This document shows positions 15,913-34,387 of a stretch of 35,981 nucleotides of DNA, piece after piece. Numbering within the stretch: the stretch's first letter is position 1; each line of letters opens with the position of its first letter. Location: positions 1 to 35,981 of IMG/VR virus record IMGVR_UViG_3300044678_001935. One strand, 5' to 3'. The position numbers and the translations under genes were made by a program. The stretch comes from a virus (lineage: Duplodnaviria; Heunggongvirae; Uroviricota; Caudoviricetes). The notes under the pieces were generated by a model. That model did not search any database. It was not told the origin of the DNA and saw only the letters and a program-made list of their open reading frames with translations.

Positions 15913-16000
15913 GCCAGTCAGAACAGGTGTTCAGAGGGATTTTATAAATCCTTTGCCCTAGATGGGGGCCTTTGGGAGGGATCATTACCCTCGGCTGGTA
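15913..16000 (+). tRNA. Non-canonical tRNA-Ile (anticodon UAU) with long variable arm
   Basis: Acceptor GCCAGTC/GGCTGGT + A; D stem GAAC/GTTC; anticodon stem GGGAT/ATCCT with loop TTTATAA; variable arm GCCC/GGGC; T stem GAGGG/CCCTC with loop ATCATTA; no encoded CCA. Confidence 0.7.
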
Positions 16001-31204: not shown

Positions 31205-31741
31205 ATGACAACAAAAACAAAAGAGGTGAAATTATCACCCAATCCATTCATGTTTGAAGTTCTAGATTTAGTTCTGAAGCAGAGAACAAAAGCAAACAAA
31301 ATTAAGGTATTAAGAGAGTACAGAGACGATAGTATTATTGCCGTTTTTCTCTGGAACTATGTTCCAGCTTTAGTGTCAGCTCTTCCACCCGGAGAAGTCC
31401 CGTATGCGGCTCTTAAAGATCTTGAAGTGGGAAATGATACACTTTCAGATACGGTGAAAAAACAGATTGAATCTTCAACAGCAATGGACTCCATGGGTTC
31501 AAACCAAAGAACCAGCATTCGTAGAGAGTTTCAGATTTTTTATAATTTCTTAAAAGGTGGTAATGATAGTCTCTCTAGTGTTAGAAGAGAAACAATTTTT
31601 ATTAACTTAATAGAAGGTCTTCATCCAAGAGAAGCAGAGATTCTTATGTTAACAAAAGATAAGAGACTAACCGATCGTTATAATCTGCCTTTTGATCTGA
31701 TTCGTGAAGCATATCCTGACGTTACCTGGGACAGATCATGA
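31205..31741 (+). CDS. Conserved T4-like cyanophage hypothetical protein
   Basis: NPFMFEVL, LPPGEVPY, RRETIFINLIEGLHPREAEIL. Confidence 0.8.
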   Translation: MTTKTKEVKLSPNPFMFEVLDLVLKQRTKANKIKVLREYRDDSIIAVFLWNYVPALVSALPPGEVPYAALKDLEVGNDTLSDTVKKQIESSTAMDSMGSNQRTSIRREFQIFYNFLKGGNDSLSSVRRETIFINLIEGLHPREAEILMLTKDKRLTDRYNLPFDLIREAYPDVTWDRS

Positions 31742-32043: not shown

Positions 32044-32234
32044 TGCAAGGGTTTGAATCTGCAAAAGTACAAGGAAAAATAAACAGAGACGAACTGAATA
32101 ATATTATCCGTAAGTATAAAAAGGCTAAAAAATACATGAGATCCGGCGTCTTTGCTATTAAGACAATGGACGGAACCGAGGAATATATTTCCTCTCTTAT
32201 GAATGAATCAAATGATCCCTCGCTTGTGAACTAA
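32043..32234 (+). CDS. Conserved cyanophage-type small protein
   Basis: MQGF..IIRKYKKAKKYMRS..FAIKTMDGTEEYI. Confidence 0.7.
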   Translation: MQGFESAKVQGKINRDELNNIIRKYKKAKKYMRSGVFAIKTMDGTEEYISSLMNESNDPSLVN

Positions 32235-32560
32235 TGGGTAAGCATTATCTACTGAATCTCTATGGTTGCCAATTTCATTCCTTGAATGATTTGAATTTTA
32301 TTACTCAACTATTAAAGGATGCCGCCATCTTATGCGAGGCGACTATTCTTAATGTTGCCACACATCAATTTGATCCATATGGGGTTACGGTAGTTTTAAT
32401 GCTCGCAGAATCACACATAAGCATTCATACATGGCCCGATAAAGGAACCGCCGCATGTGATGTTTATACTTGTTCACAAACAGATCCTAAGATTGGTTGT
32501 GATTTTATTATAGAGAAGTTAAAACCTTCTAATTACGAACTGACTTTCATTCAGAGGTGA
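32234..32560 (+). CDS. speD: S-adenosylmethionine decarboxylase proenzyme
   Basis: GKHYLLNLYGC, HQFDPYGVT, LAESHISIHTWP (self-cleavage site), CDVYTC. Confidence 0.92.
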   Translation: MGKHYLLNLYGCQFHSLNDLNFITQLLKDAAILCEATILNVATHQFDPYGVTVVLMLAESHISIHTWPDKGTAACDVYTCSQTDPKIGCDFIIEKLKPSNYELTFIQR

Positions 32561-32616
32561 GTCAGTTCGTAAACTGTCCACACATTACGACAACTCTCGG
32601 CTGTATGTGATATACT
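32561..32616 (+). promoter_or_regulatory. Early promoter with upstream dyad box driving the riboswitch transcript
   Basis: GTCA-N10-TGTC (CAGTT-N4-AACTG); TG-A-TATACT. Confidence 0.7.
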
Positions 32617-32644
32617 GGTAGAAAGCTAAGAGATTAGCTTCATC

Positions 32645-32693
32645 CGTTGACTGGAATTCTCCAGTGGAAGTAGTCTTATGACGAAGCAACGCG
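32645..32693 (+). ncRNA. Glutamine riboswitch (glnA motif, type I)
   Basis: CGTTG-A-[ACTGGA/TCCAGT hairpin]-GGAAGTA-[GTC/GAC hairpin]-GAAG-CAACGCG matches the glnA aptamer consensus. Confidence 0.85.
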
Positions 32694-32721
32694 AAATTCC
32701 ACTTTCAATTAGGAGAAAACC

Positions 32722-32823
32722 ATGAAACCAACTTTCGTTCATATTATCAAAAATAAAATTCGTAAGGAAGCTCTTATTAAAAATAGTCAATACGAAATGG
32801 CCAAGAAATCACAAATTTGTTGA
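32722..32823 (+). CDS. Riboswitch-controlled 33-aa basic peptide (possible glutamine synthetase inactivating factor-like)
   Basis: AGGAG SD at 32711; MKPTFVHIIKNKIRKEALIKNSQYEMAKKSQIC; not in the ORF track. Confidence 0.7.
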   Translation: MKPTFVHIIKNKIRKEALIKNSQYEMAKKSQIC

Positions 32824-32897
32824 TTATATTAGTGGTTTATTTTTTGATTTGCATGAGAATTTCTCAATCAGCCCTAAATTAAAGTTTTTGAATCGTT

Positions 32898-33152
32898 ATG
32901 AGTAATTATGATCTAGCAGAAAATCACAACACACCACCAGAAACCTTAGAACGGCTGGCTAATGGTGGTAATGCTAATCTTCGTTGGCTTGTTGCATTTA
33001 ATCCCAACACACCACCAGAAGCCTTAGAACGTCTGGCGAATGATGAGGATTCAGAAATTCGTTATGAGGTTGCAAATAATATTAACACACCACAATACAT
33101 CAAAGATTATCTAAAAATCAAGGAGTTTCTGAATCGTTATGAGCAATTATGA
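32898..33152 (+). CDS. LRV repeat protein D, 2 repeats
   Basis: MSNYDLA N-cap, two units, PQYIKDYLKIKEFL cap. Confidence 0.8.
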   Translation: MSNYDLAENHNTPPETLERLANGGNANLRWLVAFNPNTPPEALERLANDEDSEIRYEVANNINTPQYIKDYLKIKEFLNRYEQL

Positions 33153-33703: not shown

Positions 33704-34387
33704 ATGAGACCCGATGTAAAACTTATAGCCATAACTCAGGGGGCAGGAGATCTTGTCAATAAAAATGCACAAGAGGTTATTTCTTATGTCGCTAGAGTTA
33801 GTAATCCAAATAATCAGCTAAATTTTGATACAGCTAGCGGACTCATTAGATACTGTATTAAAAATAAACATGTAAGCATTTTTGAACATTCTTATATGAC
33901 GCTGGAGATCAATACAACCAGAGCGATTGCGGCTCAAATTTTGCGCCATAGATCCTTTTGTTATCAAGAATGGTCCCAAAGATATTCTGATGTAAATTCT
34001 TTAACAGAAACGATAGTGGTTCCAGAACTTCGTAGGCAAGACACTAAGAACCGACAAAATTCTATTGACGATCTTGATAAGGAAGTTAAGCAGTCTTTTG
34101 AAGATGAAATTAAAGATTATTTCAAACAAGGACAAGAACTTTATAATTCGCTTCTTGATAATGAAGTCGCAAAGGAATCAGCACGTTTTATTTTGCCGTT
34201 AGCAACACCAACAAGAATTTATATGACGGGCAATGTTCGTTCTTGGATGACATATATCGCTCTTAGAGAGAAAAATGGTACACAGAAAGAGCACCAAGAC
34301 ATTGCAAAAGAATGTAAGCTCATCTTTAAAGAGCAGTTTCCAGATTGTTATGAGGCTTTAGGTGGGGGCGAAGAATGGACTATCTAG
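33704..34387 (+). CDS. thyX: FAD-dependent thymidylate synthase
   Basis: YVARVSNP, HVSIFEH, QILRHRSF..SQRY, ESARFILP, GNVRSW, TQKEH. Confidence 0.95.
   Translation: MRPDVKLIAITQGAGDLVNKNAQEVISYVARVSNPNNQLNFDTASGLIRYCIKNKHVSIFEHSYMTLEINTTRAIAAQILRHRSFCYQEWSQRYSDVNSLTETIVVPELRRQDTKNRQNSIDDLDKEVKQSFEDEIKDYFKQGQELYNSLLDNEVAKESARFILPLATPTRIYMTGNVRSWMTYIALREKNGTQKEHQDIAKECKLIFKEQFPDCYEALGGGEEWTI

Follow-up and report, generated by a model that had tools for sequence, protein, structure and literature searches.

A glutamine-I aptamer and a conserved gene for a small basic helix in a T4-like cyanomyovirus of lake water

The locus and its genomic setting

The DNA considered here (the window, the whole stretch of 35,981 bases, which forms part of a 99,981-base IMG/VR record) has the gene order of T4-like cyanomyoviruses (Kyanoviridae), and its S-adenosylmethionine decarboxylase, SpeD, is closest (60%) to SpeD of Synechococcus phages B23 and B3. 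The stretch, including the cassette described below, is present in lake-water metagenomes from about 14 studies, which identifies it as a freshwater phage. A DUF6433 gene (31205-31741) and two small open reading frames (ORFs) are followed by speD (32234-32560, plus strand; Pfam PF02675, E 1e-35), which marks a conserved slot for the cassette. In this slot lie, all on the plus strand, a promoter candidate, a leader hairpin, a glutamine-I (glnA) aptamer and a gene of 33 codons whose product is a basic helical micro-protein, and further downstream come genes with LRV repeats and then thyX (33704-34387). Two observations concern this wider setting. Summed contig depth at the start of the LRV-repeat gene (32883-32964) is 10-200 times that over the cassette, and many joints of the 'goes back 42-82' kind occur there across four lake metagenomes, consistent with LRV genes that form a large and variable family, present in multiple copies, in these phage populations. 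In addition, neither a tRNA nor a tmRNA is found by ARAGORN anywhere in the window and Rfam gives no tRNA match at E <= 1, results that bear on a candidate non-canonical tRNA-Ile(UAU) at 15913-16000.

The promoter candidate (32587-32616) is sigma-70-like and consists of a weak -35 element, ACGACA, an 18-nt spacer and a TG-extended -10 element, TATACT (32611-32616), which lies 27 nt before the aptamer and predicts a start near 32623. It scores 9 of 12 with the TG in a consensus scan, a value that taken alone does not rise above shuffle expectation; a promoter-like element also stands at the matching relative place after speD in related cassettes. The hairpin that follows (AAGCTAA paired with TTAGCTT around a GAGA loop, 32623-32640) forms in the minimum free energy (MFE) structure of 32620-32740 and of longer stretches, and is absent from the leaders of relatives. 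As a terminator for speD it was ruled out because no T-run follows it. Beyond the 33-codon ORF the window has no terminator, in contrast to the relatives, and read-through into the LRV genes is thus possible.

Of 127 distinct phage glnA leaders, 48 have a canonical NtcA box (GTAN8TAC) in the 130 nt that precede them, as against 3.7% of background windows of 130 nt. The box, often in the form TGTA-N8-TACA, stands 30-60 nt upstream of the aptamer at loci L322-L327, L006, L025, L126, L147, L048, L009, L015 and L067, and all near relatives that were checked have it. It is absent from positions 32513-32642 of the window, where only GTA-N8-ACA occurs (32572-32585).

A glutamine-I aptamer with an intact core

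In an Rfam 15 scan the Glutamine model, RF01739, matches the plus strand at 32643-32695 over its entire length (model positions 1-53 of 53) with 43.8 bits against a gathering threshold of 35 and an E value of 1.6e-6. This is the single Rfam match above gathering in the whole window, and the element occurs once in the 99,981-base record. A preliminary description of this DNA, made from its letters alone, had named a glnA aptamer here, and the Rfam match confirms it; the helices and E-loop strands that it gave are all correctly placed: P1 (CGTTG, 32645-32649, with CAACG, 32687-32691), P2 (ACTGGA, 32650-32655, with TCCAGT, 32660-32665), P3 (GTC, 32673-32675, with GAC, 32680-32682) and a binding core made of GGAAGTA (32666-32672) and GAAG (32683-32686), with the tail CGAA at the 3' end. 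All 14 pairs of the three helices are standard and a three-helix junction is present. The core, GGAAGUA ... GAAG.AACGC, is intact, the sole departure from consensus being a U for C directly before GGAAGUA.

For comparison, a core-pattern scan of IMG/VR (at least 120 loci) and a narrower second scan (24 further loci) were combined into a set of 115 distinct glnA-type phage sequences. The U-for-C departure is common to 14 of these 115, and at the fifth P1 pair these sequences show covariation (C-G in 76, G-C in 29, U-A in 7), the window having G-C. In almost all of the loci from the first scan a small ORF with a Shine-Dalgarno sequence (SD) begins 20-35 nt downstream. By its sequence and predicted pairing the aptamer belongs to the glutamine-I class, RF01739, glutamine binding being its predicted activity, and it is nearly certain that a real glnA-type glutamine riboswitch lies here. 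Were it a decaying or non-regulatory remnant, the peptide would be made constitutively with the neighbouring genes. Such a state would suit the missing NtcA box and terminator, the core departure, and a score at the low end of the 42.9-57.4 bits seen among relatives; it is nonetheless very improbable, given that the score exceeds gathering with core nucleotides and helices all intact, that the same U is found in 14 independent aptamers of phages ahead of conserved peptides, and that a diverged natural variant, about 97% identical, retains the cassette with only a changed P2 loop base and K28R, differences that are uninformative for the alternative pairing considered below.

The 33-codon gene and its peptide family

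The gene occupies 32722-32823. Its start codon lies 26 nt past the aptamer, with AGGAG six bases 5' of the ATG, and the translation is the one given in the preliminary description, a small and basic peptide (pI 10.0, net charge about +6). AlphaFold2, supplied with the family alignment, predicts one helix over residues 5-29 with a mean pLDDT of 87.9. The family profile, built from peptides that resemble the window's and stand behind aptamers in the IMG/VR pattern scan, describes a basic helix of 25-30 residues, h-N-x-L-x-L-I-K/R ... K ... A-Q-L-x-M-A-K, where the window peptide scores 50.6 bits. Searched against 1.84 billion proteins, it matched 37 cluster representatives with E <= 1e-3, almost all of them between 28 and 37 residues long; the nearest relative, P0015, is 73% identical to the window peptide.

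Substitution patterns in the peptide genes show purifying selection. The genes at L322 and L323 differ by seven synonymous and no non-synonymous changes (pN/pS 0.00), and pN/pS is 0.07-0.38 for the remaining relatives; the divergent window copy compared with relatives gives 0.46-0.63, with synonymous sites near saturation. Judged by its sequence conservation, the 33-codon ORF is a genuine conserved gene. The ORFs on the minus strand over the region (34 and 54 aa) have no relatives, run antisense to the conserved gene and the aptamer, and were set aside.

The 99,981-base record has one copy of the peptide. With the window peptide as query, tblastn against 50,697 phage records gave no match at E <= 10; with the family member P0002 it did recover the cultured phage S-SRM01. 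A megablast of the locus against phages, a profile search of the PDB with the peptide family and a SpeD-based search for related loci in viral contigs were each negative. A DNA pattern for the C-terminus MAKKSQIC had 0 matches in viral contigs, and its 52 matches in metagenome contigs, which have neither an aptamer nor a similar ORF, were rejected as chance. The peptide had been called unannotated, and so it is in this DNA; a member of the family is, however, on record as the hypothetical protein QPX47984.1 of S-SRM01.

The cassette in related phages

Starting from the profile-found proteins alone, independently of any RNA, a glnA-type aptamer was found upstream in every relative whose DNA was examined (L322-L327, L269 and S-SRM01, the last scoring just below threshold). 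The slot in these relatives is the same, after speD and before thyX and phoH, and the contig of P0015 is syntenic with the window gene for gene: DUF6433, ORFs of 101 and 76 aa, SpeD, a gap of 91 nt, the 33-aa gene and an 84-aa gene. Two layouts occur. In the first, which the window shares with L322-L324, the aptamer is directly followed by the helix peptide. In the second (L269, L325-L327) the aptamer is followed by a YRG protein of 45-52 residues, the helix peptide and an intrinsic terminator, and the stop codon of the YRG gene overlaps the start of the helix-peptide gene (ATGA). At L147 and L048 a single ORF encodes both as a fusion. The YRG protein of L325 is a DUF4278 protein by a narrow score (25.7 bits, cut-off 25.3); a complex predicted for this 52-aa protein and the 33-aa helix peptide had a score of 0.00 with low pLDDT, a result that is uninformative either way.

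Among cultured phages the closest parallel is S-SRM01 (MW015081; QPX47983.1 and QPX47984.1), like the window's phage a freshwater cyanomyovirus with a glutamine-aptamer cassette for a 33-aa helix peptide. Its order is aptamer, 45-aa YRG protein, overlapping 33-aa helix peptide, terminator, thyX and phoH. It differs from the window, which has one simple aptamer and the helix peptide alone, in its YRG gene and in an aptamer split around a 55-codon ORF, the more complex element scoring 28.9 bits and so below the gathering threshold. In more detail, the S-SRM01 locus (L328, 2119-2345) has a first core (28.9 bits), the annotated 55-codon ORF, a second 'GACGGAAGGAACGC' core end and then the YRG gene, so that this riboswitch appears to enclose a gene. 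The aptamer is absent at the speD locus of B23, the nearest isolate by SpeD (60%), and at those of S-SCSM2R and S-RIM32.

That cyanophages have glutamine riboswitches is already published. The glnA motif (RF01739) was described by Weinberg 2010 and by Ames and Breaker 2011, and the first of these also described Downstream-peptide RNAs and the YRG peptides found downstream, with an unannotated YRG ORF of P-SSM2 in the supplement. McCown 2017 counted two cyanophage glutamine aptamers (PMC5473149), Table S7 of the S-CREM1 paper lists five cyanophage isolates with such RNAs (S-CREM1, P-TIM68, ACG-2014f, S-PM2 and S-ShM2; PMC9964418), and Melnitz-like phages also bear them (PMC9004378). These earlier cases are like the present one in having a phage-borne glutamine aptamer, which in P-SSM2 also precedes an unannotated mini-ORF. 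The literature that was searched holds no description of the non-YRG helix family, of the slot between speD and thyX, of the coupling or fusion with YRG proteins, or of the host counterparts linked to type-2 aptamers. What is new here is modest, namely a peptide family that links the glutamine switches of phages and hosts.

Counterparts in picocyanobacterial hosts

Hosts were sampled as 201 genomes of the picocyanobacterial family to which an uncultured Synechococcus metagenome-assembled genome (MAG) led, and 53 of them match the profile of the peptide family. Directly upstream of 14 of the best 15 host loci is a glutamine-II (Downstream-peptide, RF01704) riboswitch of 38-57 bits. The host products take two forms, stand-alone peptides of 33 residues and proteins in which the same helix is followed by two YRG motifs, where DUF4278 scores 29.5 bits. 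Given that these host proteins align with the phage peptide across the whole helix, the window peptide is, on the evidence of this alignment, the form that phages have of the helix module found at the N-terminus of host mini-proteins under riboswitch control. The family, which is delineated here and has no published name, is recognised by the helix profile and by the position of the gene, directly after either a glutamine riboswitch or a YRG gene that itself follows one, and the window's gene has both features.

The phage gene stands behind a type-1 aptamer, whereas its host homologues stand behind type-2. The glutamine-II systems of marine and freshwater picocyanobacteria (the 33-codon ORF of Yfr6, PMM1846 and 'IF17-like' proteins) have a homologous product; the window peptide differs in lacking the YRGxxY motif by which the literature defines the peptides linked to glutamine-II.

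Other aptamers came to light alongside these. In the picocyanobacterial MAGs G002 and G001, near-threshold glnA-type aptamers (L161, 4017-4086, minus strand, and L170, 7189-7258, plus strand; 34.9 and 31.0 bits against 35) precede 71-aa YRG proteins, and both MAGs also have clear glutamine-II riboswitches (L329 and L330); type-1 and type-2 together in G001 and G002 would run counter to the mutual exclusivity that has been reported for these aptamers. Single-cell genomes of SAR116 and other alphaproteobacteria have tandem glnA-type aptamers (L162, L173, L183 and L231) before ORFs resembling ammonium transporters and glutamine synthetases, in line with environmental associations in Weinberg 2010.

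Relation to IF7, IF17 and DUF4278

The natural point of reference is the type-1 glutamine riboswitch in the gifB leader of Synechocystis sp. PCC 6803, which controls the glutamine synthetase (GS) inactivating factor IF17 (Klahn et al. 2018, PMC6212724). In both systems an RF01739 aptamer lies in the 5' untranslated region directly before the gene of a small basic protein, and the translational ON control proposed for gifB, by release of the ribosome-binding site (RBS), is the logic predicted for the window. The window differs in being phage-borne, in a product with neither DUF4278 nor an IF7-like GS-binding part, and in having no NtcA box.

The preliminary description had gone further and proposed a peptide that is IF-like or DUF4278-like, and here it is not supported. 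A set of 31 IF17 homologues from cyanobacterial gifB-type loci has three YRG motifs followed by an IF7-like region with three invariant arginines. The helix core compared with that region gave an hhalign probability of 0.45%, hmmsearch against the 31 homologues gave matches at E >= 1 only, the three spaced arginines have no counterpart in the window peptide, and profile-profile comparison with IF17 yields an alignment to the fusion proteins at their YRG motif only. Pfam, DUF4278 included, has no match to the window peptide at E <= 10, nor does the peptide have a YRG motif, and DUF4278 (PF14105) has no match anywhere in the 100-kb record. With no detectable similarity to the IF7-like part and no relative in Pfam or the PDB, the peptide falls by its sequence outside IF7/IF17 and DUF4278. 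As read from the sequences of relatives and hosts, its link to DUF4278 is one of partnership, by overlap or fusion in relatives and by the helix preceding DUF4278 in hosts, and not of homology.

The peptide might still be an inactivating factor of the IF7/IF17 type, which would bind and inhibit host GS at high glutamine. This proposal has the regulatory logic of gifB behind it; in its small size, its basic character (pI 10) and its helical form the peptide resembles IF7 and IF17, which bind electrostatically; and its relatives in hosts are the 'IF17-like' proteins under riboswitch control, considered in reviews as potential regulators of GS. Set against this, besides the missing similarity, arginines and PDB relative, reviews call IF-mediated GS control in picocyanobacteria ruled out or unclear, and they describe GS regulation in picocyanobacteria and the roles of DUF4278 mini-proteins as unresolved (PMC6316151). 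We consider such a factor improbable here; in the looser sense of a small basic binder made at high glutamine, an IF-like mode of action is possible by analogy.

A predicted alternative fold and the likely direction of switching

The leader can also fold in another way. The 5' strand of this alternative (32657-32669) is made of TTCTCC (32657-32662), the anti-SD, and AGTGGAA (32663-32669), and overlaps P2 in its 3' arm as well as the beginning of the core that binds glutamine; the 3' strand (32697-32717) is made of TTCCACT (32697-32703) and the SD, GGAGAA (32712-32717). TTCTCC is the exact complement of GGAGAA, and AGTGGAA that of TTCCACT. Because the alternative draws on P2 (its 3' arm) and on the opening bases of the core, it and the aptamer are predicted to be mutually exclusive. 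For 32643-32733 the alternative is the ViennaRNA MFE structure, at -20.3 kcal/mol as compared with -16.0 kcal/mol with the aptamer enforced, and in the folding model its 13 bp beat any aptamer-containing fold by 4-6 kcal/mol. The free ensemble of the window leader leaves no part of the SD unpaired; once the aptamer is enforced, the SD becomes 23-74% unpaired.

How much weight this fold can bear depends on how often the like arises elsewhere. When the downstream 38 nt are shuffled, 3.4% of the shuffles yield by chance a competitor as strong, and when the linker alone is shuffled 6.7% do; among 112 phage leaders the window ranks at the 6th percentile for competitor strength. The SD opens on enforcement of the aptamer in just 4% of these 112, the window being among them, and pairing between SD and aptamer occurs in only 2 of 66 phage leaders. 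The anti-SD fold that the preliminary description had drawn thus exists and is the predicted ground state, with modest support (p 0.03-0.07) and no equivalent in the nearest relatives; the release of the SD upon aptamer formation that it had proposed is likewise reproduced by the model, only partly, and as a rarity across the 112 leaders. ON-type translational control is likely, by analogy with the reporter and mutant data for gifB (PMC6212724). That the specific anti-SD fold is its working mechanism is, on the folding models, an evenly balanced proposition.

Alternatively, the riboswitch and peptide may be as described and the long-range fold incidental, with glutamine releasing or capturing the nucleotides just 3' of the aptamer and so modulating a short local helix at the RBS, in ways beyond secondary-structure energy models. 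Klahn et al. propose pairing between tail and RBS for gifB (PMC6212724). The near relatives keep a small hairpin, TTTACT/AGTAAA, abutting the SD (GGAG), and in two-dimensional models their SD accessibility is independent of the aptamer; in the window, the tail UUCC still pairs in part with GGAG when the aptamer is enforced, and the anti-SD fold has been seen in one lineage only. The TTTACT/AGTAAA hairpin is, however, gone from the window, and the 13-bp alternative, 4-6 kcal/mol more stable, should form unless kinetics prevent it. Control through a local helix would be possible but rather unlikely. The long-range fold would set the window apart from gifB, in that its predicted OFF state invades P2 and the binding core whereas gifB uses only its 3' tail.

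A further complementarity lies within the coding sequence. The conserved Thr-Phe codons ACUUUC (window 32734-32739; codons 4-5 in L322 and L323) are complementary to GGAAGU of the aptamer core, and in the free MFE structures of L322 and L323 the two are paired, which may be chance or a second competitor helix.

A probable nitrogen-sensing cassette in a freshwater cyanomyovirus

Taken together, the locus is probably best understood as a self-contained cassette for nitrogen sensing in a large T4-like cyanomyovirus of fresh water, in which a glutamine ON switch would govern a strongly basic, single-helix protein that has homologues in hosts. Lying between speD and the LRV and thyX genes, the cassette would probably be transcribed as a short leader from its own sigma-70-like promoter. 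At low glutamine the two-helix alternative fold would break P2 and the core and pair the Shine-Dalgarno sequence; once glutamine is bound the aptamer would be stabilised, the Shine-Dalgarno sequence released and translation switched on, with the same logic as in gifB. The likeliest action of the product would be for its basic amphipathic helix to bind a host protein of nitrogen metabolism or partner proteins of the YRG/DUF4278 kind. A bolder proposal, which we hold to be improbable and offer as speculation, is that the helix is the effector module of a picocyanobacterial glutamine-riboswitch regulon and the functional counterpart of IF7, and that the phage uses the helix alone, under its own type-1 switch, to block an enzyme with which the host assimilates nitrogen (e.g., glutamine synthetase) or to hijack the host's YRG/DUF4278 partners when glutamine is plentiful in infection.

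The at least 120 loci and 24 more in IMG/VR add to the evidence that phage riboswitches are less rare than was stated in 2017. For the study of the family itself, the helix made as a synthetic peptide would be a very small reagent for pull-downs and enzyme assays. More broadly, the phage retains only one piece of the host system, a 33-residue helix that is under purifying selection, has its own glutamine sensor and keeps a fixed slot in the genome, and this combination points to the helix as a functional unit.
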